DNA of 64,000 bases from Glaucostegus cemiculus (GCA_976551045.1 CDPCPM010000019.1:4960001-5024000), one strand, 5' to 3'. Shown: positions 3,240 to 60,200, counted from the stretch's first letter. The notes: generated by a model not told the origin, from the sequence alone. Numbers and translations are program-made.

Positions 3240-3760
3240 CTTCCTAGAGCTGAATCAAAACTGTAATTAGAATTGTCTCGACAAACTCCAAACTCAGCAC
3301 CGTAAGCAGATTATTGGTCACATTGTTAGCTCTGCTGATGGCACCTTTCAGCACTTTGCTGATGATTGAAAGTAAACTGATTGAATGGCAATTAGCTGAA
3401 TTGGATTTCCCATGCTTTTTGTTAACAAGATATATCTGGGCAATTTTCTATATTGTGCTCTAGATACCAGTGTTGTATCTTAAAAATACAAAGTAGTGGA
3501 AGATACTCAGCAGGAAGGGTCTTTGACATGAAACGCTAGCTCAGTTTCTCTTCCTATAAATGCAGCCTTACCTGCTGAGCATTTCCAGCATTTTCTGCTT
3601 TTATTTTAGATTTTCAGCATCTGTTGTTTTTTTTTAATTTTCACCAGTGTTGTAACTGGTTGTCCAGAGGTTTGGATAGTTTTGGAGCTCAAGTCATCAA
3701 TACTGTATGGAAGGATAATATCTTCTTCCATAATCTTTGCTGTATCTAATCCTCTCAGCT
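3240..3760 (-). mobile_element. Ancient degenerate LINE RT fragment (CR1/L2 group), interrupted by a fold-back element
   Basis: The reverse complement resembles the WKIAQVCPVHKK...NPANYRPISLLSIISKV region of non-LTR RTs but is heavily decayed. It continues on both sides of 3478-3642. Confidence 0.5.
3478..3642. mobile_element. Fold-back short repeat with 12-bp target site duplication
   Basis: Arms ggaagatactcagcagg / cctgctgagcatttcc. Flanked by direct repeat ACCAGTGTTGTA at 3466-3477 and 3643-3654. Confidence 0.75.
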
Positions 3761-7888: not shown

Positions 7889-8299
7889 AAATGGACTTGC
7901 TGGTCTGCTGCAGAGAATAAGAATATGAAAGACACTCAGCAGTCCACGGAGATGAAGTTGTGATGGAAGATCAGCCATGATATTAAATGGCAGAGCATAT
8001 TCAAAGATTCTAATAACCCCTTTCTGCAGCTCTAGTTCAACATTCTTACTTAACCTTCTCAAAATTTATTATTGAAGGTAACCTGGCATTATTGAATTTC
8101 TTGTGTCATAACATTAACTCTTCTAATCTGTTCGCTCCTCTCTGTTCTTAGTATTGTCTCCGTTTTATCTCTTCTTCTGTTATTCTGAAAACTTGCTATT
8201 TTTCCTTTATTTTCCCCAAGGTAAACATTATTTTGATATGCTTTCCTGCTGAGTGTCTTTTGTATTCTTATTCTCTGCAGCAGACCAGCAAGTCCATTT
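7889..8299. repeat. 54-bp inverted repeat with 303-bp spacer
   Basis: 7889-7942 is the reverse complement of 8246-8299 with 2 mismatches. Confidence 0.9.
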
Positions 8300-10444: not shown

Positions 10445-10664
10445 CAACAAACAATCTGCTGGAGGAATTCAGCAGGTCGAGCAGCATCCGTGGGAGCAAA
10501 GGAATTGATGACACTTCTGGTCGAAACCCTGCATTTGGGTTTCGACCCAAAGTTTTGACAATTCCTTTCCTCCCTCAGATGCTGCTCAACATGCTGACTT
10601 CCTCCAGGAGATTGTTTGTTTCTCTAGATTCCAGCATCTGTAGTATCTTGTAACTGCAAAAATA
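10445..10664. mobile_element. Fold-back short repeat, best-preserved copy
   Basis: acaaacaatctgctggaggaa...gcagcatc...ggtcgaaaccc is mirrored by gggtttcgacc...gatgctgc...ttcctccaggagattgtttgt. TATTGTG occurs at both flanks. Confidence 0.8.
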
Positions 10665-15765: not shown

Positions 15766-15814
15766 TGAATCTGTTTAAAATCTGCATTATCTGTAGCACC
15801 TGTGTTGTAATAAC

Positions 15815-15982
15815 AACAGAAAATGCTGGAAACACTTAGCAAATCAGGCAGCACCTGTGGAAAGAGAAATAGTTAATATTTCATTTCTGGGACTGCTTCT
15901 CTTTTCATGGATGCTACTTGACCTGCTAAGTGTTTCTAGAATCTTCTGTTTTTATTTCAGATTTTCAGCATCTGCATTTTTT
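15815..15982. mobile_element. Fold-back short repeat
   Basis: aacagaaaatgctggaaacacttagcaaatcaggcagca is mirrored by tgctacttgacctgctaagtgtttctagaatcttctgtt. Confidence 0.7.
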
Positions 15983-21074: not shown

Positions 21075-22292
21075 CCATAATGCCATCTCCCTGGCCTTAA
21101 ACTCATCTTTGGAACATGGACAGTACAGGCACCTATGTTAGACTATTGTTTATTGACTATAACTTCAATACTATAGTTCCAAGCAAACTCATCACCAAAC
21201 TCTGAGACCTGGGACTAAACGCCTCCCTCAGCAACTGACTTTCTGACCAACAAACCGCAATCTGTGAGGATAGGCAGAAACACATCCGGCACGATTATTC
21301 TCAACCCTGGTGCCCCAAAAGGCTGCATCCTCAGCCCTCTACTCTACTCCCTATATACTCGTGACTGGGTGGTGAGATTCTGCTCTAACTCCACCTACAA
21401 GTTTGCAGATGATACCACTGTAGTAGGCCGTACCTCAAATAACGATGAGTTGGAGTACAGGAAGGAAAGAGAGAGCTTAGTGACATGGTGTCATGACAAC
21501 AACCTTTTCCTCAATGTCAACAAAAGAGCTGGTCATTGACTTCAGGAAAGGGTGCAATGCAAATGCACCTGTCGATATCAATGGTGCTGAGGTTGAGAGG
21601 GTTGAGAGCTTCAAGTTCCTAGGAGTAAACGTCACCAATAGCCTGTACTGGTCCAGCTACATAGATGCCACAGCCAAGAAAGCTCACCAGCTCTCTACTG
21701 CCTCAGGAGACTAAAGAAATTTGGCATGTTCCCTTTGACACTCACCAACTTTTATCGATCCACTATAGAAAGCACCCCATCTGGATACATCACAGCTTGG
21801 TATGGCAACTGTTCTGCGTGGGACCACAAGAAACTGCAGAGAGATGTGGACACAGTCCAGCACATCACGGAAACCAGCCTCCCCTCCATCGACTCTGTAT
21901 CTACCCCTCGCTGCCTTGGTGAAGCAGCCAGCATAATCAAAGTCCTCACCCACCCACCCACCCAGGTCATTCCTTCTTCTCCTCTCTCTCATCAGGCTGA
22001 AGATACAGGACCCTGAGGCTCAAGGACAGCTTCTATTCCACTGTTATAAGACTACTGAACGGTTCCCTTATACTCTTGACCTCATAATCTACCTTGTTAT
22101 GACCTTGCACATTGTCTACCTGCACTGCACTTCCTCTGTAGACGTTTCACACTCTACTCCATATTCTGTTAATCTTTTTACCCTGTACTACCTCTATGCA
22201 CTGTGTAATGAATTGATCTGTATGAACGATTATGCCAGACAAGTTTTTCACTGTACTTTGGTCAAGTGATGATAATAAACCAATACCAATAC
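21075..22292 (+). mobile_element. 5'-truncated Rex1/Babar-type LINE
   Basis: GAPKGCILSPLLYSLYT, KFADDTTVVG, WCHDNNLFLNV, KELVIDFRK, VERVESFKFLGV, FYRSTIES..ITAWYGNC; 3' UTR ends aataaaccaataccaatac. Confidence 0.9.
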
Positions 22293-27599: not shown

Positions 27600-28290
27600 A
27601 CTCTGGGCAGGAGGTACAGAAGCCTGTAGTCCCACAGCACCAGGTTCAAGAACAACTACTTCCCTTCAACCATTCGGTTCTTCAACCAACCAGCAAAACT
27701 CTAATCACTGCTACAGTTTAGCAACACTATGACCACTCTATTCATTTTGCACTAAAATGGACTGTTTTTTTGTTCTAGTTGTCTTTTTCATGTAAAAATT
27801 GTGTATAAGTTATGATTAATTCATGTTATTCTTGTGAATGTTGCTTATAGTATGCTATGTGCCTGTGATGCTGCTGCAAGTAGGTTTTTCATTGCACCAG
27901 TGTATACATGTGCACATATGACAATAAACTTGACTTTAAAGATACACTTCTCATTACCTTGGTCAAGTGGCCAACATAATCAAAGATCCCACCCACCCCA
28001 GAAGTTCTCTCTTCTATCCCCTCCCATCTGGCAGATGATACAAAAGCCTGAAAACACATACCAACAGGGAAAAGGACAGATTCTATCCCACTGTTATAAC
28101 ACTATTGAATGGTTCCCAAGTACAATACGATGGACTCTTGACCTCACAATCTACCTTGGTATGACCTTGAACCTAATTGTTTTACCCTGTACTACCTCAA
28201 TGCACTATTGTAATGTTTGAACGGTATGTAAGACAATATTTTCACTGTACCTTTGTACATGTGACAATAATAAACCAATTTACCAATTTC
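27600..28290 (+). mobile_element. Two adjacent Rex1/Babar-type 3' end fragments
   Basis: 27945-28287 matches 21900-22292 (gactcttgacctcacaatctacc...gtgacaataataaaccaat). 27600-27935 is a related tail (gggcaggaggtacagaagcctg...atgacaataaacttgactt). Confidence 0.75.
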
Positions 28291-35200: not shown

Positions 35201-36800
35201 GTATGATAAATTATATTTGACATGGATTTTGAAATCAAGATGTTTTGTATGACACAAACTGTCCAGTTTGGTCTTTAAATCACACTGGAGCATAACCCCA
35301 TCATACATTAATAGAGACGTTGACAATTAACACAATACAATCCTGAGGCATTACTTGGAGTATTAGAACATGCATACAAGGCTCAATGGTTACGGATACA
35401 TCCGTTCGACCTATGACAGATGATCGGGAGCAATGCATACACATACCTATTTAACCAGTAACTGGATTGCTCACCATGCTGTTCGGGTGATACTTCTAGA
35501 AACTGCTGACTAATCAGCAAGGGGTCATTCTCACAATAGTCAAAAGTGTAATTATTATTTAGAGAACTTGACCATTGTAGGAGAACTAGGAAACAAAGAT
35601 GGATTTCTTTGTTGTCACAATACCTTCAAGATGACTTTGTCAACCATCTAAGGTGCTCTCAGTTTCCTGTCATATGTATCAGGAAAGTCCACAGATCTCC
35701 ATCATGCCATGAACGAATATCCGCTCTCAGTTTAGTAAAATAACATTGGAGTGTGGGGTTCTTCCCAATTGGTTCCAGCTAACTTTCAACCAAAATCGTA
35801 TCCTGTGTGGTGTACCTAGCTAAGTGCTTGTCATTATATTGCTTGCTTAAACTCTGGCATTGTCTCTGAACTTCCAAAATACTTGGTGTAAATCCAAAAT
35901 ATAAATTTACTTGACTTATGAAACTCTCCTGACACCCACATATTTCTCAGCAAACTTGAATTAGCAACATAAACATTGTTTTGGGTTGTCATCTGCAGGA
36001 ATCAGGAGCTCACAATGATGGGGCACTTTTCATATTTGCAGAGTGTTTCAAGGTGACGTCAATGGATTGCAACTGAAGTGTAATATTTAGTCTGTGCGCA
36101 CGGCAGTCAAAAGAAAAATCAACTTCATTTATTCCTTTATACCACCAAGTTGTACAGAATACACACTGACTAGTATCCCAATAATGGTTTCTCTTGCTGC
36201 TCTATCAAGGCAATGAATACTGCAATTGAATATTCCCTCATATCTACTTGCCAATAATTTTAGAGCATTTACAGAGTTGACTCTTTGTTGGCAAATGCTT
36301 CATGGGTAACAGATACTGTTACCAGAGCCTTCATGTCTCTCAATAAACACCATTGGTATACTTACACAGTTGAGTCAAATGCCAATAGCCAATGATCATA
36401 GAGGATTCAATACTGCTAAATTTACTGTCCATTAAGATCTGTTCTTCTTCCCAAGAAGTATTATTGAGCGATAAGAAATAAAATTTTCATATTTCTTAAC
36501 AGGAGAGAAAACACACCTTCTAAATAGAAACATGGGATATCTGTAATATAATATGCACTTGTTACGAAGTACTTACTACCGGCAAATATCCCTTTAAGGT
36601 GGGACATTGTGTGTGTGTGCAACGTATTACGTCAACAGAAGATAAGACTAACGTGATGAGGTCATTACAAGAAAGGGAGAAAGAAAGAGAAAGAGAGACA
36701 GACAGACAGACAGACGGAGAGAGAGAGGAAGGAGGCACGGCAGCCACCCTAGTCAATCTTTGGACTGGATCCCAGAACGACACTCATTAATCTTGGGAAG

Positions 36801-36818
36801 ATCCCGGACGAACCCCCA
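36801..36818 (-). promoter_or_regulatory. tRNA-Pro primer binding site
   Basis: Minus strand TGGGGGTTCGTCCGGGAT matches the tRNA-Pro PBS TGGGGGCTCGTCCGGGAT at 17/18 positions, 4 nt after the LTR's terminal CA. Confidence 0.92.
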
Positions 36819-36822
36819 ATTT

Positions 36823-37646
36823 TGTTACGAAACCAGCAACAAAAGAAGCACACCAAGTCATACTTCAGTGTTAAAACTACTTTATTAATAACTACATCCG
36901 ATAATACGTAAAATAAGAACAAAAAGTTAGTATATTAGTACAAAACAAAATATTAGAATCTTAAACTGTAACCCCAAAAATTACTCGTCGTGTGTGTGTG
37001 GCAAATTCCTAAACTCCAAGTCCAGGAATTAGTTCTTAAAGTTCAGTTCAGTAAGCCGTAAGATGAAACACGAGTAGAGGCTTCTTCACAAGCACCGTCC
37101 ACCGAAGACAAAACATAGATATAGAGAGAGCTTAGAGAAGAATCACGAGTCTGAATGTTCCACTTAGAACTAGAACGACACTTCAGGGCTCACTCGGTAG
37201 TGACTTTCTCACCCCGAAAACTCCTGGATCGTGACTGTCCATGCAAATACCTGTGTTCTTCTACAGGTTAGCAGCAAAGCGAATGCCATCACTTTGTTCC
37301 ACAGTATCTGCCACTCTGAAGAGCATCCAAAGTGTGGTTGTTCACGCAAACACCTGTGTCCTTCTACAGGTTACCGACAAAGTGGACTCCACTGGACTAC
37401 TCCAGAAATCCATCCGTGGATTGTAGTGATAAACATAGTTACTGTCCTTCATCCATCGACAGAAACAAAACAGGCTGCTGTGCCTCCTTCCTCTCTCTCT
37501 CCGTCTGTCTGTCTGTCTCTTTCTTTCTCCCTTTCTTGTAATGACCTCATCACGTTAGTCTTATCTTCTGTTGACATAATACGTTGCACACACACACAAT
37601 GTCCCATTTTAAAGGGATATTTGCCGGTAGTAAGTACTTCGTAACA
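36823..37646 (-). repeat. Complete 824-bp LTR (Gypsy- or ERV-type)
   Basis: On the minus strand it runs TGTTACGA...TCGTAACA, has AATAAA at 36881-36886 near its 3' end, has 28-bp internal direct repeats, and is followed by a PBS. Confidence 0.88.
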
Positions 37647-38451
37647 CACTCAACTCCTTTAGATTATATTTTAAGAATCACCTTATGAAGTCTATCAATG
37701 ATCCATTATAGTCCATCACAAACTTGTATCTTCAGTACTGGTCTTGTAGTCTTTTGAGGGAGATCATGAAAATAATACCAATCTATATTGCACAATTCCC
37801 TTTTTGTGCCATAAGCTTATGTTCATTGTGACAAGATTGTGTCTGCCTAAACTTATTTCATTTAAAATCTGATCATTGTAAAGGAGAATTGAACCTGTAC
37901 AGACTGGACAAAATGTACCCATTTTTAAGGGGTGGCAGGTAACATTATGTGTAGTAATCTGTCCCAAGGTTAAGTACATCAGTTGTAATAAAAGACACAG
38001 GAGTTGTATTACATACGGTACCACATGTGTGTACACTCAATGTTTATTTACTAAAAATCTTAACTAGATTGCAATCAGTTCATATACCAGTTAGAGGTAT
38101 AAAAATGGATACCAATTCCACAAAGATGAAAATAAAACAATATGACTTTCCAAATACTTTAATTGAAATTGAATCTATGGCATTTGAGTTTCATCAATAC
38201 TGTCTGCATTGTAAAGAACTGGAAAGCAAGGCAGCTATTCAAACCGTGCTTGGTAGAACACTATCATCTTAACAACCGGATCTTCCTTAACTTACATTGG
38301 ACCACCTTAAGCCAAATAGTAGCTTCCGACAGTACAGATATCAAATATGGTAAGCAGAGTTGCATAACCTTTGCTCATTTTCTAGGTGATTTCCAGCACA
38401 TGCATCAAAAGGACTAAGCTGAAGACTGCAGCCATAGATGAACAAATACAT

Positions 38452-38697
38452 TGGGACTCTTGACCTCACAATCTACCTTGTTGTGACCTTGCACCTTATT
38501 GTCTACCTGCACTGCTCTTTCTCTGTAGCTGTGACATTTTACTCTGTACTGTTATTGTTTTTACCTGTACTAACCTCAATGCACTCTGTACTAACTCAGT
38601 GTAACTGCACAGTGTAATGAATTGACCTGTACGATTGGTGCGCAAGACAAGTTTTTCACTGTACCTCGGTACAAGTGACAATAATAATACCAATACC
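38452..38697 (+). mobile_element. Rex1/Babar 3' UTR fragment
   Basis: Closely matches 22073-22292 and has the same caatac tail. Confidence 0.85.
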
Positions 38698-39104
38698 ATG
38701 TAGAATCTTTCTCCCATTTATGAGATCGGGATATTTCTGGCAAGGATAACATTTACTGTCTGTATCTAATTTCGTCCTGAACTATGTGCCTGCAAGCCCA
38801 TTTTAGAGGGCTAAATTGGTAGGTCCAGGGTCACATACAGATTAGACCAGGTAAGGACGGCAGACTTCCCACCCTTAAGGACATCAGCCCACAAAAAAAA
38901 TTCTTCAAGTGATATCAAACTGGTGGATATAGTAAAATCTGTACTTTCTGCTATAATTTTATACATATATTGACAAAGTGGATTTGTATTGTGATGTAGA
39001 TTATTTTCTTTCAAAAATAACATTTCAATCAATAATTCAAATTATGAATGAATGCAACTTTCTAAGAGAGAAATTCAAGGATATAAAATACACATTTTAG
39101 TTAA

Positions 39105-40410: not shown

Positions 40411-40834
40411 AGTTTCCATGAATGTACAATGATGTAAGCAAGGGTCATGCTTATTTATCATGCATTTTAACTAAAACAATAATGTTTCCTGTTATTGTAT
40501 AAATGGTTAAGCTCTCTCAAATAATTCTGAAGTAATAACAGTAATAGGACAGATATTAAACTATTTAGTGCTTCTTTTTTTATTAATGAAATATGATGCC
40601 CCATTACAGTATCCTGAACGCAAGGAGAAAGATTTAAAATCAGAGCAATTGTCCAGTTGACTAATAGTTGCTGTATAAACCAATAACAATGGTTTAAAGC
40701 TCATATTCTTGCATCAAATAAATCTAAATAAAACAAGAAGTGCAGAAAAATAGACAAAATAGAACAACTACTACTGCCTTTTCTATCACAAGGTTCATAA
40801 TTTTGCATGTGTATATATATTTTCTCCAAACTTT

Positions 40835-43386
40835 CCTGCAGCCTCACCACAAAATTCAACGTCAGAAGTTTCCAGAGGAACATCTAAACAAGTCTGATGC
40901 ATTTTGGAAACAAGTCCTGTGGACTGATGAAGTTAAAATAGAACCTTATGGCCACAATGAGCAAAGGGATGTTTGGAGAAAAAAGGGTGCAGAATTTCAT
41001 GATAAGAATTCACCAAGGAGAGGGGTCTTGATGAAGCGGTAGAGAGTGCTGGTAAGGGTAATGTTCTCGAGTATGTATCTATCAAGAGGGAGGAGGTGTT
41101 GAAGTTGTTAAATAATATCAAGACAGATAAGTCTCCGGGGCCTGACGGTATATTCCCCAGGCTGCTTTGAGAGGCAAGGAAGGAGACTGTTGATCCGCTG
41201 GTGAGGATCTTTGAGTCCTCGTTGTCCATGGGGATGGTGCCGGAGGATTGGCTGGTAGCGAATGTTGTTCCCTTGTTTAAGAAAGGTAGTAGGGATAGTC
41301 CGGGGAATTACAGACCAGTGAGTCTCACATCTGTGGTGGGTAAACTGTTAGAAAGGACTCTAAGGATAGGATCTATGAACACCTGAAGAGTCACGGACTG
41401 ATTAGGGACAGTCAGCATGGCTTTGTGAAGGGAAGATCTTGCCTCACGAGCCTGATAGAATTCTTTGAGGAGGTGACGAGGAAGACTGATGAGGGCAGTG
41501 CGGTGGATGTGGTCTACATGGATTTTAGTAAGGCATTCGATAAGGTTCCTCATGATAGGCTCCTTCAAAGGTCAGAGGGCAAGGCATCCTGGGGAGATTG
41601 GCTGTGTGGATCAGGAATTGGCTTGCCTGTAGAAAGCAGAGGGTTGTGGTGGAGGGAGTGCCCTCGGATTGGAGGGCTGTGACTAGTGGTGTCCTGCAGG
41701 GATCTGTTCTGGGACCTCTACTCTGTTATATTTATAGATGACTTACATGAAGAGGTGGAAGGATGGGTTGGTAAGTTTGCGGATGACACCAAGATCGGCG
41801 GTGTGGTGGGTGTGGAGGACTGTCGGAGCTTACAGAGGGATATTGATAGAATGCAGAGCTGGGCGGACAGGTGGCAGATGGAGTTTAATCCGGAGAAGTG
41901 TGAGGTGGTGCACTTTGGTAAGACAAACTCCAGGGCAGAGTACAAGGTAAATGGCAAGGTACTTGGCAGTGTAGAGGAGCAGAGGGATCTGGGGGTTCAT
42001 ATCCACACTTTACTCAAAGTTCCCTCGTAGGTGGATAGGACAGTTAAGAAGGCTTATGGGATGTTAGCTTTTATAAATCGTCGGATTGAGTTCAAGAGCC
42101 GAGAGGTGATGATGCTGCTTTATAAAACTCTAGTTAGACTGCACTTAGATTATAGTGTTCAGTTCTGGTCGCCGCATTATAGGAAGGATGTGGAGGTGCT
42201 GGAGAGAGTACAGAGGCGATTTATCAGGATGATGCCTGGATTAGAGGGTATGGAATATGAGGAGAGGCTTAAGGTGCTACGGCTTTACTCGTTGGAGAGG
42301 AGGATGAGAGGGGACTTGATAGAGGTGTATAAGATATTGAGAGGAATAGATAGAGTTGACAGCCAGCGCCTCTTTCCCAGAACACAGATGCTCAAGACGA
42401 GAGGGCATGGCTTTAAGATATTGGGTGGAAAGTTCAGGGGAGATATCAGAGGGAATTTTTTCACCCAGAGAGTGGTTGGCGCATGGAATGCGCTGCCTGG
42501 GGTCGTGGTGGAGGCAGATACATTGGACAGGTTCAAGAGATTGTTAGGCACGTGGAGGAATGTGGAGTAGAGGGATATGTGGGAGGAAAGAGTTAGATCG
42601 TGTGATATTTGAAGGATGGCACAACTTGGTGGGCCGAAGGGCCTGTTTTGTGCTGTATTGTTCTATCGTTTAATGGTTCTAATACCTCTCCAACTGTTAA
42701 GCATGGGGATGGATCAATCATGCTTTGGGCTTGTGTTACAGCCAGTGGCATGGGGAACATTTCACTGGTAGAGGGAAGAATGAATTCAATTAAATACCAG
42801 CAAATTCCGGAAGCAAACATCACACCATCTGTAAAAAAGCTGAAGATGAAAAGTGGATGGCTTCTACAACAGGATAACTATCCTAAACATACCTCAAAAT
42901 CCATAATGGACTACCTCAAGAGGCACAAGCTGAAGGTTTTGCCATGGCCCTCACAGTCCCCTGACCTAAACATCATCAAAAATCTGTGGATAGACGTCAA
43001 AAGAGCAGTGCATGCAAGATGGCCCAAGAATCTCACAGAACTAGAAGCCTTTTGCAAGGAAGAATGGGTGAAAATCAATCAAACAAGAACTGAAGCACTC
43101 TTTGCTGGCTACAGAAAGTGTTTACAAGCTGTGCTACTTGCCAAAGAGAGTGTTACTAAGTACTGACCATGCAGGGTGCTCAAACTTTTGCTTCAGGCCC
43201 TTTTCCTTTTTTGTTATTTTGAAACTGTAAAAGATGGAAATAAAAAAAGTAATCTTGCTTAAAATATTAAAGAAATGTGTCATCTTTAACTTTATGTCTT
43301 TTGGAAATCAGGTCATCTTTTACTCCTTAGCTATTCGCAGTAACAGAAATTTTGGCCAGGGGTGCCTAAACTTTTGCATGTCACTG
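40835..43386 (+). mobile_element. Tc1 (DD34E, IR/DR type) transposon remnant, 5' truncated and split by a CR1
   Basis: FWKQVLWTDEVKIE...VWRKKG before the insert; PTVKHGDGSIMLWAC...QQDNYPKH...WPSQSPDLNIIKNLW after it. Direct repeats gggtgc-aaacttttgc at about 43174 and 43360; terminus CACTG|TA. Confidence 0.93.
41010..42680 (+). mobile_element. Young 5'-truncated CR1 nested in the Tc1 transposase
   Basis: Same subfamily as 16878-18599; NYRPVSLTSVVGK, KFADD and FFTQRVVGAWNALP motifs; frameshifted. Confidence 0.95.
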
Positions 43387-43452
43387 TATATATCTATCTA
43401 TCTATCTATATTATATATGTATGTGTATAGATAGATAGATAGATATAGATAT
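43387..43452. repeat. TA/(TATC)n/(GATA)n microsatellite forming an inverted repeat
   Basis: 43389-43410 is the exact reverse complement of 43426-43447. Confidence 0.9.
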
Positions 43453-48585: not shown

Positions 48586-49979
48586 AGAAAATAGAAAACA
48601 TGAAGCCAAATGACTGGACTTACAGATCAAGTGCCAGGCCCAAACTGGTGCAGGACCTGAGAGTAGTTTCCCCAGAAAATGCCGGGGAATCTCAGCAAAG
48701 TCATGTTCCACAGAGAGACCAATAGGAGAGCATATTTGATGCTCAACCAAAAGCCTTGGGAATTGCTAATTTGTGTAGAGGTCCTGAAACTTACCAATAC
48801 TTGACTTGAGAAATACCTATGCTCAAACTCAGCAAAATCTGGACATTTCATAGCTGGCATATATATACTTGGCTTCCAGTTTGCCAATTTACTATGCTCT
48901 TATCATTGATTTTTTTTTAGGAAAGAGAGAAATATCAACAAAATCTATCCAAGGATAACATATTCATCAAAATTTTAAGGATGTAGGTAAGTGCTTGGAT
49001 ATAGTAATGCACTAGAGCAAAATGTACAGATCATTCACTGACATGTAGTTATTTTAGCTAACCAAACAGTTTCACATATTTTATGAATATAAACCCACAG
49101 ATGTTTTTAATCACCACCTTTCTACCATTATACATCATACTTTATTGAAGATAATCGAAGAAGGAAGGAAGTCTAAGAACCTTTAAACGAGAGAAGCAAT
49201 CCATTCTTGAAGTGTGCACATCATATTGCTATGTCCTTGGCTGCGAGGAACACTCACTCAGTCATGCCAATACTGCAGGAAAATTGCTCTCTTGCCTACA
49301 GGCAAGAATGGTTTAAGTGAGTATGATTTTTCCTTTAGGCTGATTCTGCATAACCAACTTGACACCCCAAGGCATAACAATCTATGTAAAATACACACTG
49401 CTATTGAGAAACCTGCCAAGCAGGACACGGTGATCAGGACAGTGTTCTCTGATAGGACACAGACACTAACTGTTTACAGCACATTAGCTTTGAAAGACAA
49501 TCATAGCATAAATTTTTGGTTGAATGCATAAATAATGAGAACGATTCACAATGAAACATTACTCACTATTTAACACTTCAATGGGGCAGATTTCTACCCC
49601 AAGGCCAGTGCATATGCCGGGTATTTTTCTCTTTTTTTTTAAAGTGTAAGTGTAGAGTAAGATTTTTAACAAGGGTGTAAGATACTAGTGTTAGATAGTA
49701 TTTAGAAGTTATTTTTAGTAGGGTTATATAAGCTTTAAGGGGTCGAGTGAGGGCTGCACTGCGCAGGCGCCACGCGGGCAGCTTAAAAGGCAACCAGCTG
49801 CTAGAGCGGGCAGCGTCGGAGCGGGCAGCGGAGTGAGGGGGGAGCAGAGTGTTCGGGCTTTGGCTCAAGGGGCTTCGGCTTGAAGGGGCGAGGCAGGGGA
49901 GTTACTGGTAAGTAAAGGTAAGGCTTACCTGTTGAAGTTACATAGTTGGACAAACCAGGTTTAAGGGGAACTAGTTAAG

Positions 49980-50942
49980 ATGGAGGGCATGGTGCAGTGC
50001 TGCAGCTGCTTGATGTGGGAGGACGTGGACCCCGTTGAGGTTCACGTTGACCACTTCTGCAGTAAGCGTGTGAGGCTGGAGGAACTTCGGCTCAAAATTG
50101 ATGAGCTGGAGTCACGGCTTCAAACACTGCAGAGCATCAGGGAGGGAGAGAGTTATGTAGATGCGGCACATCAGGAGACAGTCACCCCACTTAGAGCAGA
50201 TACTTCAGGGGGCCAGGTAGTAGATAGCTGGGTGACTGTCAGGGGAGGGAAAGGGAAGGGGAAAACGAATAGGCAGACAGTGCAGAGAACCCCGGAGGCT
50301 GTTCCCCTCAATAACAGGTTTTCAACTTTGGAAACTGTGGAGGGGGACAGCCTGCAGGGACCAAGCACTAGTACCCAGGTCACTGGCACTAGGACCAGTA
50401 CTACTGCTCAGATGGGGAAGAAGGCAAAGAGAAATGCAGTGGTGATAGGGGACTCGATAGTCAGGGAAACAGATAGGAGATTCTGTGGAAGTGAACATGA
50501 ATCCCGGATGGTATGTTGCCTCCCAGGTGCCAGGGTCCAGGATATTACTGATCGGGCTCACAGGATTCTCGAGCGGGAGGGAGAGCAGCCAGAAGTCATG
50601 GTTCATGTTGGTACCAATGACATAGGTAGAAAGAGGGATGAGGTCCTGCAAAGGGAGTTTATGGAGCTAGGCAGAAAGCTGAAGACCAGGACCTCAAGGG
50701 TAGTAATCTCAGGATTACTACCGGTGCCACGTGATAGGAAAGGTAGGAACAGGGCGAGGTGGCAATTAAATACGTGGCTGAGAAAGTGGTGCAGGGTAGA
50801 AGGTTTTAGATTTTTGGATAACTGGGACCTCTTCTGGGGAAGGTGGGACCTGTACAGAGAGGACGGGTTACACCCCAACCAGAGGGGGGTAGATATCCTT
50901 GCAGCACGGTATGCTTGGTTGGTTCATGAGAGTTTAAACTAG
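49980..50942 (+). CDS. CR1 ORF1p: zinc-finger/leucine-zipper region plus SGNH esterase domain, uninterrupted 320 aa
   Basis: CCSCLMWE..FCSKR, heptad LEELRLKIDELESRLQTL, VIGDSIV, VHVGTND, DGLHPN. Confidence 0.92.
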   Translation: MEGMVQCCSCLMWEDVDPVEVHVDHFCSKRVRLEELRLKIDELESRLQTLQSIREGESYVDAAHQETVTPLRADTSGGQVVDSWVTVRGGKGKGKTNRQTVQRTPEAVPLNNRFSTLETVEGDSLQGPSTSTQVTGTRTSTTAQMGKKAKRNAVVIGDSIVRETDRRFCGSEHESRMVCCLPGARVQDITDRAHRILEREGEQPEVMVHVGTNDIGRKRDEVLQREFMELGRKLKTRTSRVVISGLLPVPRDRKGRNRARWQLNTWLRKWCRVEGFRFLDNWDLFWGRWDLYREDGLHPNQRGVDILAARYAWLVHESLN

Positions 50943-53900
50943 TTGGTGAGGGGGATGGGAACCAGGAGGGCAGGTCAGAGGATGTAGGGGTTACAGAAAA
51001 GGCAGATCTAACAGACAGAGTGGCTCTGGGGAAGGAGAAGCAGAGTACAGGCCATAATAGTAAAAAGGTGGATAAACTAATCAGGCAAGACGAAGGAAAC
51101 CAGCTTAGATTAAAGGAGGAGGTATGCGGGAACAAGTCGACGTGTAGTGAAGATGGTAAGAAGGACGGGCGGGTGGAAGGTAAGGATAATTTAGAGATCA
51201 ATAGAAGTTCATCAATATCTGTAGTTGATGCTGTTCTAAAAGTACTGTATTTTAATGCATGTAGCATTAGGAATAAGGTCGATGACCTAGTGGCACAGCT
51301 ACAAGCTAAAAAATATGATATCATGGCAATCACCGAATCATGGCTTACTGACGGATGTGATTGGGAACTGAACATCCAAGGGTATACAGTGTATAGGAAG
51401 GATAGGAGGGTAGGCAGAGGGGGTGGTGTAGCCCTGATGGTCAGTAATAATATAAAATCGATAGAAAGGAAGTACATAAGGGTGGAAGAAGTGGAATCCT
51501 TATGGGTGGAGCTAAGAAATAGCAAGGGTAAAAGGATGCTAATTGCAGTTATATGTAGACCCCCTAACAGCAGCCGGGAGGAGGACTATAGGATACAGTT
51601 AGAAATAGAAAAGGCATGTCAAAAGGGCAATGTGAAGATAATTATGGGGGACTTCAACCTGAAGGTAGATTGGGAAAATCAGCGAGGAGGTGGATCGCAG
51701 GAAACTGAGTTTGTAGAATGTCTACAGGATGGCTTTTTGGAGCAACTTGTAGATGAACCCACCAGGGGATCAGCCATTTTGGATTGGGTACTGTGCAATG
51801 AACCAGAGCTGATTAGGGAGTTAAAAGTAATGGAACCATTAGGAACCAGTGATCACAATATGATTGAGTTTGGAGTCAAATTTGAAAAGGAGAGGCTCAT
51901 AACTGGTGCACATATATGGCAATGGAACAAGGGAAACTACAGCAGTATGAGAGAGGAACTGTCTCAAACCGATTGGAAGAGTAAGATAGCAGGTGGGACG
52001 GTGGAGCAGAAATGGATAGAGTTTTTACAAGAAATAAGGAAGGTGCAGGATAGGTATGTTCCAAGAAAAAAGAAAGTTCTGAATGGAAAAAAGGCACATA
52101 TGTGGGTAACGAGAGAGGTTAAGGCTAAGATAAGAGCAAAAGGGAGGGCCTACAAGGTAGCAAAAATAAGTGGGGAAACTGAGGATTGGGAAACACTTAA
52201 AAACCTGCAGAAAGAAGCTAAGAAGGTCATTAGGAAAGAAAAGATGAATTACGAAAGGAAATTGGCAGATAACATTCAAACAGATACTGAAAGTTTTTTT
52301 TAAATATATGAGGTGTAAAAGAGAGACAAGGGTTGATATAGGACCAATTGAAAATGGTGTGGGAGAGATTATAATAGAAGATACAGAGATGGCAGAGGAA
52401 CTAAATAAGTATTTTGCATCGGTCTTCACTGTGGAAGATACCAGCAATATACCAGATAGACAGGGGTTCCAGGGGATTGAACTGAGTACAGTTGAGATTA
52501 CTAGGGAGAAGATGCTAAGGAAGCTAAGTGGATTAAAGACAGATAAGCCACCCGGACCGGATGAGGTGCACCCTCGGTTTCTGAAGGAGGTGGCTTTACA
52601 GATTGTAGAGGCATTAGTGATTATTTTCCAGGAGTCAATGGACTCCGGCATGGTTCCGGAGGACTGGAGAGTAGCGAACGTAGTTCCACTCTATAAGAAA
52701 GGTGGGAGGCAGCATAAAGGTAATTACAGACCAATTAGTTTGACGTCAGTAGTGGGAAAGATACTGGGATCGATCCTCAAGGATGAGGTTACAGAATACC
52801 TGGTGTTTCAAGACAGGATAGGTCCAAGCCAGCATGGTTTCGTAAAGGGAAGATCTTGCCTGACCAACCTATTGGAGTTTTTTGAGGAAATCTCAGGTAG
52901 GGTGGATAAGGGAGAGGCAGTAGACGTTGTGTATTTAGACTTTCAAAAGGCCTTCGACAAGGTGCCGCATCAGAGGTTGATTAATAAGATGAGTACGCAT
53001 GGAATTACAGGAAGGATATTAAAATGGGTCGAGCATTGGCTGGTAGGCAGAAAGCAACGGGTAGGAATAAAAGGATCCTGTTCTGGATGGCAACCGGTTA
53101 CTAGTGGTGTCCCGCAAGGGTCGGTGTTGGGCCCGCTACTTTTCACTTTATATATTAATGATTTGGATGATGGAGTAAATGGTTTTGTAGCTAAGTTTGC
53201 GGATGACACCAAGATTGGCGGTGGAGCAGGGAGTATAGAAGACGCAGGAAGGCTGCAGAGAGACTTGGATAGGTTAGGTGAATGGGCAAAGAAATGGCAG
53301 ATGAAATTCAATGTTGACAAATGTGCTGTAGTACACTTTGGCAAAAGAAATGACCGGGCAGATTATTATCTAGATGGGGAGAAAATTGGAAGTACGGAAG
53401 TACAAAAGGGACTTGGGGGTACTCGTGCAGGACACCCTAAGAGTCAACCACCAGGTCGGATCGGCGATAAAGAAAGCGAATGCTATGTTGGTGTTCATTT
53501 CGCGAGGTATAATGTATAGAAGTAGGGAGGTGATGATGAGGCTCTATGGAGCACTGGTACGTTCTCATTTGGAATACTGTGTGCAGTTTTGGGCCCCACA
53601 CCTTAGAAGGGATGTGCTGATGTTGGAGAGGGTTCAGAGGAGGTTTACAAGGATGATTCCTGGTATGAAAGGGCTTACCTATGATGAGCGTTTATCGGCT
53701 CTTGGACTGTACTCATTGGAGTACAGAAGAATGAGGGAGGACCTCATAAAAGTGTTTAAGATGTTGAAAGGAATGGATAGAGTAGATGTGGATAGGCTGT
53801 TTCCCTTGGTGGGTGAGTCCAAGACTAGAGGGCACAGACTTAGAATCAGAGGGAATCAGTTTAAAACAGAGATGAGGAGAAACTACTTTAGTCAGAGGGT

Positions 53901-54035
53901 GGTGGAATTGTGGAATTCTCTGCCACATACAGCTGTAGAGGCTCAGTCAGTGGGGGCATTTAAAGGGGAGTTGGATACGTACCTAATTAATCAAGGTATC
54001 AAGGGATATGGGGATAAGGCTGGAAATTGGAGATA
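50930..54035 (+). pseudogene. CR1 ORF2 (APE endonuclease + reverse transcriptase) with two +1 frameshifts
   Basis: LYFNA, ITESW, GDFN and SDHN endonuclease motifs; [27 protein letters not shown]. Frame breaks at the T8 run 52294-52301 and the A4 run 53404-53407. Confidence 0.93.
50933..50939 (+). promoter_or_regulatory. Putative -1 ribosomal frameshift slippery heptamer T TTA AAC
   Basis: ORF1 ends AGT TTA AAC TAG. The -1 frame TTT AAA CTA... is open and continuous with the endonuclease domain. Confidence 0.65.
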
Positions 54036-54749
54036 TGTTATCTTTTCTCTTCTCATGGAGCAGACTCGAAGGGCTGAATGGCCTACTTCTGCTCCCTTGT
54101 CTTGTGATCTTGTGACTTGCCTGTATTCCTCAGTGGTAGCCCCAAAGTTCAGCACTAATGCAGGCTTAAGCTGGTGATAGCATCTTAAGCCCTGTTACCA
54201 ATGCTGTTGGCTACCCTACACTGGGGAGCTCTGGTATGAAGTTCTTAGCTGTCAGCTATAAAATCTGCTTGTCAAGCCTACACCAAAGGAGTCTCTTTAA
54301 AATGAATGGGAGAAATAGATGGCCTGGAAGAAGGCTATTAGATGATTTTATGTTTTAACTCAGGTGGTTTAAATGGTTTAAGTTTTTAATTTGTGTGTGT
54401 TTGGTCATTTAGTCATTGCCACTAGCATTGGTCTTTTCAGTTTTTTTAAATGACTTTAATTTTTAACATTTTTAAAACAGATTTTCAACATTTGTGAACA
54501 TCCAAAACATTCGTAATAATTAAGTAACAGTGACAGCTTTGACAGCCAGTGAGTTTGGGGAAGAGGCCTCTTAGCTGCTCTGCGAATGCAACCAACTGCA
54601 TTGCAGTGCAGAGAACACCCAAGGTCAGGATTGAACCTCGGTCTCTTAAACTGTGAGGCAGTAACACAAACTGCTGCACCACTCTGTCACTCCACTTGCC
54701 ATCATCAACTCAATGGCCCAATGGCATCCTTCCCTGCCATAAGAAAAAT

Positions 54750-58792: not shown

Positions 58793-60200
58793 CAGAACAT
58801 AGAACATACAGCACAGGATCAGGCCCTTTGGCTAATGATGTCTGTGCCAACCATAGGAATTTTAGCTAATTTCATCTGCCTTCATATGGTCTGTATCCTT
58901 CCATTTCCTGCCTGTTCATGTGCCTGTCTAAATACCTCTCAAATTTTACTTTCATATCTGCTTTCACCATTTCCACTGGCAGCACGTTACAGGCACCTAC
59001 CACTCTCTGTGTAAAAAAATATTGCCTTTTAAATCTCCTTTAAACTTTCCCCCTCTCACCTGAAAACTATGCACTCTGGTATTTGACATTTCCACCCTGG
59101 GAAAAAGACTCTATCTACACTATCTATGCCTCTCATAATTTTACATACTTCTATCAGAGGCTCTCAGCCTCCAACGCTCCAGAGAAAAACAATCCAAGTT
59201 TGTCCAACCTCTCCTTATGGCTAGTATTCTCCAGTCCAGGGAACATCCTGGTGAACTCCTTCTACACCCTCTCCAAAGCTTCCACATCCTTCATGTAAAG
59301 CGGCAACCAGAACTGCACCCAATATTCCAAATGTGGCCTAACCATAGTTTTATACAGCTACCACATGACTTCCTAACTTTTATATTCAACACTCGACCAA
59401 GAAAGGCAAGTATGCCATATGCCTTCTTTACCATCCTATATACTTGTGTTGCCACTTTCAGGGTGCTATGGGCATGCACCTCAAGATTCCTCGGTACACC
59501 AACACCACTAAGGGTCCTGCTGGATACTGGATACTTTCCTCTTACATTTGACCTCCCGCAGTGCAATACCTTGCATTTGTCCAGATTAGACTTCATCTGT
59601 CATTTCTCTGCCCACATGTCCAGTTGGTCTATATCCTGCTGAATCATTTGACAACCTTCCTCAAGATCCACAACTCTGCCTATTTTTGTATCATCTGCAT
59701 TTTATTAATCANNNNNNNNNNNNNNNNNNNNNNNNNNNNNNNNNNNNNNNNNNNNNNNNNNNNNNNNNNNNNNNNNNNNNNNNNNNNNNNNNNNNNNNNN
59801 NNNNNNNNNNNNNNNNNNNNNNNNNNNNNNNNNNNNNNNNNNNNNNNNNNNNNAAATAAAAACAACACAGGACCCAGATTTGATACGTGTATACTTGTGG
59901 AACACCACTGGTCACAGACCTTTAATCAGAATATGTCCCTTCCACCAGTACACTGTCTTGTATAGCCAAGCTAATTTTGAATCCAATCTACCAAGTCTCC
60001 ATGGATCCCATGTACCTTAATCTTCTGGATCAGTCTACCATGAGGGTCAAAAGCTTTACTAAAGTCCATGTATACAACACTCACTGCCCTACATTATCAA
60101 TCATCTTTGTCACCTCCACAAAAAACTCAATCAAGTTTGTAAGATATGACCTCCTCTGCACAAAGCCATGCTGACTGTCTCTAATAAGTCCATGCATTTT
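58793..60200 (-). mobile_element. 5'-truncated CR1 LINE spanning an assembly gap
   Basis: Minus-strand ORF NLDKCKVLHCGRSN...MVKKAYGILAF; 3' tail at about 58795. Confidence 0.9.
59712..59853. other. Assembly gap (142 N)
   Basis: Run of N in the sequence. Confidence 1.

Follow-up and report, generated by a model that had tools for sequence, protein, structure and literature searches.

How does an insertion derived from a long terminal repeat (LTR) come to have the same end of that repeat at both of its borders? The question is raised by a unit of 1087 bp located at 36560–37646 in a 64,000-bp stretch of the Glaucostegus cemiculus genome (GCA_976551045.1, CDPCPM010000019.1:4960001-5024000), the whole of which is referred to below as the window. 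Read on the minus strand from 37646 to 36560, the unit consists of an 824-bp LTR, a 4-nt spacer, a primer binding site (PBS) for tRNA-Pro, a presumed leader of 55 bp, and 186 bp that repeat LTR nt 1–174 in inverted orientation. On the plus strand the order, 5′ to 3′, is the presumed unique 3′ region (U3) in LTR sense (186 nt), followed by the leader, the PBS and the full LTR, all antisense. Both outer ends, read inwards, are TGTTACGAAG. The structure is real, an unusual variant among LTR-retroelement insertions, and the unit is most probably unique and inert. We assign a probability of about 0.55 to the reading that reverse transcription of an LTR retroelement primed by tRNA-Pro went wrong once and that the resulting DNA, now inert, integrated normally.

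The complete LTR occupies 36823–37646 on the minus strand and is bounded by perfect terminal inverted repeats of 9 bp (37638–37646 and 36823–36831). Its first 174 nt (37473–37646, minus strand) are the stretch duplicated in inverted orientation, and are called U3 here because they lie far upstream of a TATA-like site at element nt 524 and of the AATAAA hexamer at nt 761. The inverted arm (36560–36745) runs in LTR sense on the plus strand and begins exactly at the LTR terminus. Comparison of the arm with the reverse complement of 37473–37646 by blastn found 91.4% identity over 186 columns (E 4e-74), and among the blastn matches listed this is the strongest of the three inverted pairs in the window with arms less than 3 kb apart. 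The similarity ends abruptly at the junction 36746/36745, beyond which 0 bases match; this junction is 77 nt past the LTR end. No polypurine tract was found before the arm, which directly adjoins the target site duplication (TSD), and neither an internal LTR start nor a copied flank was present there.

Alignment of the two arms revealed four transitions (37608, 37607, 37576 and 37479) and one 12-bp length difference, which falls in an AG/AGAC microsatellite. Two of the transitions are at CpG sites and the remaining two are adjacent non-CpG changes. There are 7 CpG sites in the inverted arm and 5 in the LTR copy, with 2 of the 7 changed; at assumed CpG:non-CpG rate ratios of 5–15, between 1.5 and 4.6 non-CpG transitions would be expected, and 2 were observed. 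The arm differences thus fit ageing from identical copies, and different templates, although possible, are not required. The observed/expected CpG ratio of the unit is 0.70, versus 0.22 in the AT-rich, CpG-depleted window, from which we conclude that the unit is fairly young, and younger than its surroundings.

The terminal motif, the AATAAA hexamer with a T-rich stretch and the adjoining tRNA PBS that mark an LTR retroelement were all found in the unit. Both LTR ends match the general motif TGTTRNR...YNYAACA. The sole AATAAA of the LTR lies at 36881–36886 (minus strand), 58 nt before the LTR end, and T makes up 46–50% of nt 701–824, in agreement with the GT/T-rich stretch that follows this hexamer in LTRs; no further polyadenylation hexamer follows the LTR within the unit, the nearest being 427 nt into the flank. 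The PBS (36801–36818, minus strand) begins 4 nt past the LTR end, after an AAAT spacer (36819–36822, minus strand), and is identical at 17 of 18 positions to the PBS-Pro of murine leukaemia virus (MLV) as given in PMC4587795; the rough probability of such a match by chance within 6 positions of the LTR end is 5e-9. The presumed leader (36746–36800, minus strand) has a single ATG, which opens only 12 codons, and stops at the junction. Two smaller features were also seen: a 44-bp direct repeat within the LTR (37236–37279 and 37339–37382, minus strand; 84% identical and 103 nt apart), which resembles a U3 enhancer repeat, and an exact 11-bp match between the presumed leader (36774–36784) and the LTR interior (37172–37182), which is probably due to chance (E 0.22).

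The unit is flanked by CACT on the plus strand, at 36556–36559 beside the inverted arm and at 37647–37650 beside the LTR start. The duplication is exactly 4 bp (5- and 6-bp versions fail), and two random local 4-mers would match with a probability of 0.0054. An earlier note on this locus had described the coordinates, the succession of LTR, PBS, leader and inverted U3, about four substitutions and 12 bp of microsatellite between the arms, and CACT on both flanks, all of which were found again on re-examination; it had further deduced from the flanks that the unit was inserted whole, and this deduction is invalid. When the LTR start is reverse-complemented, it agrees with the LTR end over exactly 9 terminal bases. 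As the terminal inverted repeat is perfect, an inverted U3 end and a normal U5 (unique 5′ region) end are therefore alike over the last 9 bp, and the CACT duplication is no proof of insertion as one unit. The same duplication would be retained if, in a normal provirus, an inverted copy of the first 174 nt later took the place of the interior and the 3′ LTR, with the return falling within the 9 bp. The duplication shows past integrase action at this site, not what was inserted.

No further copies of the unit were found in the window by blastn (word size 7, E up to 10): the matches were the unit itself, its two arms, the internal 44-bp direct repeat and chance-level matches of 10–22 bp. Nor was a paralogous empty site found within the window: the 1.5 kb of left flank had no other match, and matches of the right flank to other repeats began only at 808 nt from the unit. 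Open frames were scanned for protein families at two levels, namely 95 frames of at least 80 aa from the whole window and 113 frames of 45–79 aa from 26.2–39.1 and 43.5–47.5 kb. Neither set contained a match to gag, protease or integrase families, no pol was found in the unit or in either set, and no host gene was detected near the unit. The families matched by the longer frames were reverse transcriptase, endonuclease, GDSL-esterase, DDE_3 and ALKBH8_N; the shorter frames gave three matches, all weak and below the cut-off. In searches of protein libraries, the junction-spanning frame at 36560–36787 (plus strand) had four candidates, none at E≤0.01, and the 146-aa antisense frame at 37204–37641 (plus strand) had none; both frames are probably non-coding, and these blanks are uninformative on copy number.

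How might reverse transcription have produced such a unit? In the normal cycle the second strand transfer is mediated by the PBS (PMC6894440, PMC7197481). In the reading we favour, a plus strand primed at the polypurine tract would have copied the first ~180 nt of U3, after which reverse transcriptase would have jumped to the plus-sense RNA leader, 55 nt beyond the PBS, and from there copied back across this site. The strand could then have made an ordinary PBS-mediated second transfer with another plus-strand strong-stop DNA, and extension of both strands would yield a 1087-bp duplex with two U3 ends. The same product would arise by an equivalent route, in which a plus strand that has just undergone the second transfer folds back on its own U3. 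Over the 9-bp repeat the integrase would see the extra U3 end as a U5 end, so that concerted integration would leave a clean 4-bp duplication, and the arms would diverge with age thereafter.

Several observations argue for this mechanism. Neither end of the unit goes beyond the LTR terminus or falls short of it, which is what a template ending at that point would give. The exact 4-bp duplication also counts in its favour, as do arm differences that fit ageing from identical copies and the fairly young age of the unit. The junction coincides with the place where strand-transfer intermediates sit, and a random breakpoint in an assumed interior of 3–7 kb would land as close to the LTR end only 1–2.6% of the time. 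One aberrant jump accounts for everything, against the two events needed by a rearrangement after insertion. Related products have been described: complex LTR elements flanked by a TSD have been ascribed to abnormal template switching (PMC1950507), human immunodeficiency virus (HIV) proviruses with inversions or with asymmetric LTRs to misalignment during reverse transcription (PMC9278108), and Ty1 intermediates terminating at the PBS have been captured at junctions (PMC2939329).

Other observations weigh against it. Given the shared 9-bp end, the CACT duplication cannot tell an aberrant product from a rearrangement after insertion. The leader side of the junction has 0 bases of microhomology, a count for which the parent's leader would be needed for a full check, and the argument from breakpoint position presupposes a full-length parent. 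An integrated U3–U3 product was not found in the available text of the literature on aberrant reverse transcription and integration, and the acceptance of two U3 ends by integrase in vivo is something we infer. The sole printed element with an inverted LTR that was found, PrERV-1 of the guppy, is tentatively ascribed to recombination (PMC5210030).

The main rival to aberrant reverse transcription is a normal provirus rearranged after insertion, which we consider possible but unlikely. It could have arisen by a two-switch replication error that left the leader at +55, copied U3 backwards from nt 174 and returned via the 9-bp repeat at the end of the 3′ LTR, or by inversion of the 3′ LTR in place followed by a deletion between the leader and the inverted U3. 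The 9-bp shared end would hide the return switch and keep the duplication, and the divergence of the arms is explained equally well. Switch-and-return events that make inverted repeats are documented in vertebrate genomes (PMC5453318), and a fish endogenous retrovirus (ERV) with one inverted LTR has been reported (PMC5210030). However, the documented events are short-range (PMC5453318), whereas here the second of two necessary events must hit a 9-bp repeat presumably several kb off, although an identical repeat sits only 70–78 nt upstream of the junction; the closeness of the breakpoint to the PBS is also left unexplained. An accident at the integration stage could take two forms, which we rate jointly as quite improbable. 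In one, a concerted integration takes one U3 end from each of two cDNAs, whose free ends are then resected and joined; in the other, a host polymerase extends the end of a truncated cDNA, with the other viral strand as template. In aberrant HIV proviruses a truncated end can be joined to additional viral DNA, whichever way the latter is oriented, but long duplications, deletions or inversions of host DNA are the usual outcome (PMC5041404), and at this locus the duplication is an exact 4 bp and no flank was copied. An assembly or library artefact, such as a fold-back chimera or a mis-join of two family members, is conceivable in LTR families, which are repeats; we regard it as very improbable, as the arm differences follow a biological pattern (all four are transitions, two of them at CpG), beyond the unit the sequence is unique flank again, marked by the matching 4-bp duplication, and there is no gap within 22 kb, the sole N run of the window being at 59712–59853.

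A mobile family of any form is improbable overall. The earlier note had left the choice between a one-off product and a non-autonomous family with ends like those of a miniature inverted-repeat transposable element (MITE); the one-off product is the likeliest outcome, and the Ginger/MITE option has no positive evidence. The most far-reaching form of family is a retro-parasite without a polypurine tract or a 3′ R region, which would be a new kind of retroelement with terminal inverted repeats (TIRs), and we give it a slim chance. If transcribed from the LTR, its RNA would consist of R-U5-PBS-leader-antisense U3 and be co-packaged with a helper, whose nascent plus strand would pair with the 186-nt antisense U3 in a homology switch and copy the leader back to the PBS; transfer to a second helper plus strand would restore the unit with two U3 ends, which the helper integrase would insert. 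The anatomy of the unit is as such a cycle would require, and the cycle would explain the retention of the promoter, the poly(A) signal, the U5 end and the PBS, and a multi-copy family is likelier than a unique event to be met in a random window. Only one locus was found in the 64-kb window, but this is weak evidence, since a family of 1000 copies in 3 Gb of genome would place a second copy within 64 kb with a probability of 0.02. Against it stand the 55 nt of leader left for a packaging signal and the lack of a poly(A) hexamer after the LTR within the unit; no such family was found in the open-access literature, and the mechanism is an inference. A MITE-like DNA transposon derived from the LTR and moved by a Ginger-type transposase is barely credible. 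The inverted repeats of 174/186 bp, the TGTNR ends and the 4-bp TSD are all within the Ginger1/Ginger2 ranges (TIRs of 40–270 bp), and Bao et al. (2010, PMC2836005) proposed that Ginger1 TIRs might have come from two opposite-facing LTRs. TGTNR is nevertheless common to Gypsy LTRs and so does not discriminate. The target, CACT/AGTG, is neither the CCGG nor the CCGT/ACGG of Ginger1, and the 6-bp target, GAGTGC on the minus strand, differs from the RTATAY of Ginger2/Tdd, a weak test as RTATAY is only a preference. No Ginger or integrase-like transposase frame was found in the unit or among the frames scanned, there is no sign of multiple copies in the window, and the retroelement signals in the interior are intact, which would be useless to a DNA transposon.

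The DIRS, Penelope and L1-type candidates were rejected on anatomy: DIRS elements have inverted repeats and no TSD, and Penelope elements and L1-type inversions have no PBS and imprecise ends. Autointegration circles (PMC7197481) were rejected as well, since a product of that kind would connect the true end of an LTR with an internal site, and the junction in the unit is internal-to-internal.

Judged from the LTR sequence, the parent was probably a fish-type Gypsy element. The terminal motifs of rGmr1 and Sushi (Table 3 of Benachenhou et al. 2013, PMC3601003) match both LTR ends, although these motifs are short and do not separate the clades; the length of 824 bp falls within those listed there for the rGmr1 and Sushi training sets, and AATAAA lies near the LTR 3′ end, as reported for Sushi. 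In contrast to elements of these two clades, the unit has no second direct LTR, polypurine tract or gag/pol, and the clade cannot be fixed. The LTR ends do not match the motifs of Zam, Mag A, Mag C, CsRN1 or HML. Among retroviruses, the gammaretroviral 5′ motif TGWAGNMRR is absent, whereas the gammaretroviral 3′ motif, the tRNA-Pro PBS and the 4-bp TSD do fit, the last two being also typical of gammaretroviruses. The very short TGT...ACA end motif and the 4-nt TSD agree with class III ERVs, but the PBS is of the Pro type, and class III elements mostly use tRNA-Lys. Nothing was found in the open-access literature on tRNA-Pro priming in fish Gypsy clades.

The unit is neither a solo LTR, which carries no PBS or leader, nor a terminal-repeat retrotransposon in miniature (TRIM), in which two direct LTRs and a polypurine tract are present. 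It is like both in being short, non-coding, LTR-derived and flanked by a TSD, and TRIMs also keep a PBS. As compared with an intact provirus or TRIM, the only second LTR copy is partial and inverted, and no polypurine tract precedes a 3′ LTR. As compared with a solo LTR, in which the TSD adjoins both LTR ends, the PBS and 241 further bases lie between the LTR end and the TSD.

Aberrant insertions offer further comparisons. In Triticeae, complex LTR insertions (Sabot and Schulman 2007, PMC1950507) share with the unit an abnormal LTR structure, one TSD and a reading as a single integration of an aberrant product, but they have three direct LTRs with normal U3/U5 ends, in place of its strand reversal and two U3 ends. 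Aberrant HIV proviruses also include truncated viral DNA attached to viral DNA that faces the other way, and internal inversions (PMC5041404, PMC9278108); host-mediated retroviral insertions are usually without a short TSD (PMC5041404), whereas the unit has one of 4 bp. Guppy PrERV-1 likewise has an inverted LTR in a fish genome, in that case the 5′ LTR, but it is described as a full ERV (PMC5210030), and the comparison is made without details of its TSD or junction. In the open-access literature it was the only report found of an inverted LTR in connection with target site duplications, and none was found that combined an inverted LTR with a PBS in a non-autonomous retrotransposon. The structure of the unit itself was not found described in the open-access literature; subscription journals, Repbase and Dfam were outside the search, so its absence from print is not established.

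As a one-off case, the unit suggests that DNA with U3 at both ends can be inserted by a retro-integrase in the germline. It also shows that a single LTR can give rise to TIRs of the size seen in Ginger elements and MITEs, a step that Bao et al. proposed for Ginger origins and called unclear (PMC2836005). Programs that look for TIRs plus a TSD are expected to label such a unit a DNA transposon. If the junction were to recur at other loci with different duplications, it would represent a new replication strategy for non-autonomous retroelements, and the retro-parasite, as a retroelement bounded by TIRs, would show in living form the passage from LTR to TIR proposed for the origin of Ginger. No host function of the unit is evident.

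The window reads as vertebrate non-coding DNA. It contains no Rfam match at gathering score and no tRNA gene, and folding of the unit, done at this length without a shuffle control, gave no structure other than the expected panhandle. A likeness at ~37895–37945 (minus strand), ~300 nt upstream of the LTR start, to LTR nt 17–62 was considered as an older LTR in the upstream flank and rejected as chance, as 36 of 200 shuffles scored as high. The N run mentioned above is the only assembly gap of the window, with 142 N, and lies 22 kb from the unit.

Fragments of long interspersed nuclear elements (LINEs) with reverse transcriptase, endonuclease and GDSL-esterase domains fill the window, together with a remnant of a DDE_3 transposase. 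We take these LINEs to be CR1-like, resembling those of cartilaginous fishes. A near-complete LINE, presumably also CR1-like, is located at 49965–54174 (plus strand), with a GDSL-esterase ORF1, an endonuclease and a reverse transcriptase frame split over several reading frames. The transposase remnant, which is Tc1-like, is at 40728–43163 (plus strand; DDE_3 match at 42606–43163) and is apparently interrupted by a LINE at ~41030–42550; terminal repeats were looked for in this remnant and not found.

Other inverted structures were seen elsewhere in the window. A 411-bp unit at 7889–8299 has 54-bp inverted ends that are 96% complementary, a 303-bp spacer and no obvious flanking duplication. Near-palindromic hairpin repeats with short spacers lie at 10446–10620 and 15806–15959 (arms of 84 and 68 bp, respectively), the latter being related to 3545–3634; they are possibly head-to-head pieces of short interspersed nuclear elements (SINEs) or MITEs. 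An imperfect 59-bp palindrome at 43389–43447 is 87% self-complementary. A dispersed repeat of ~240 bp was found at 38454–38698, which is 0.8 kb beyond the LTR start, and again at 22072–22288 and 28132–28279.

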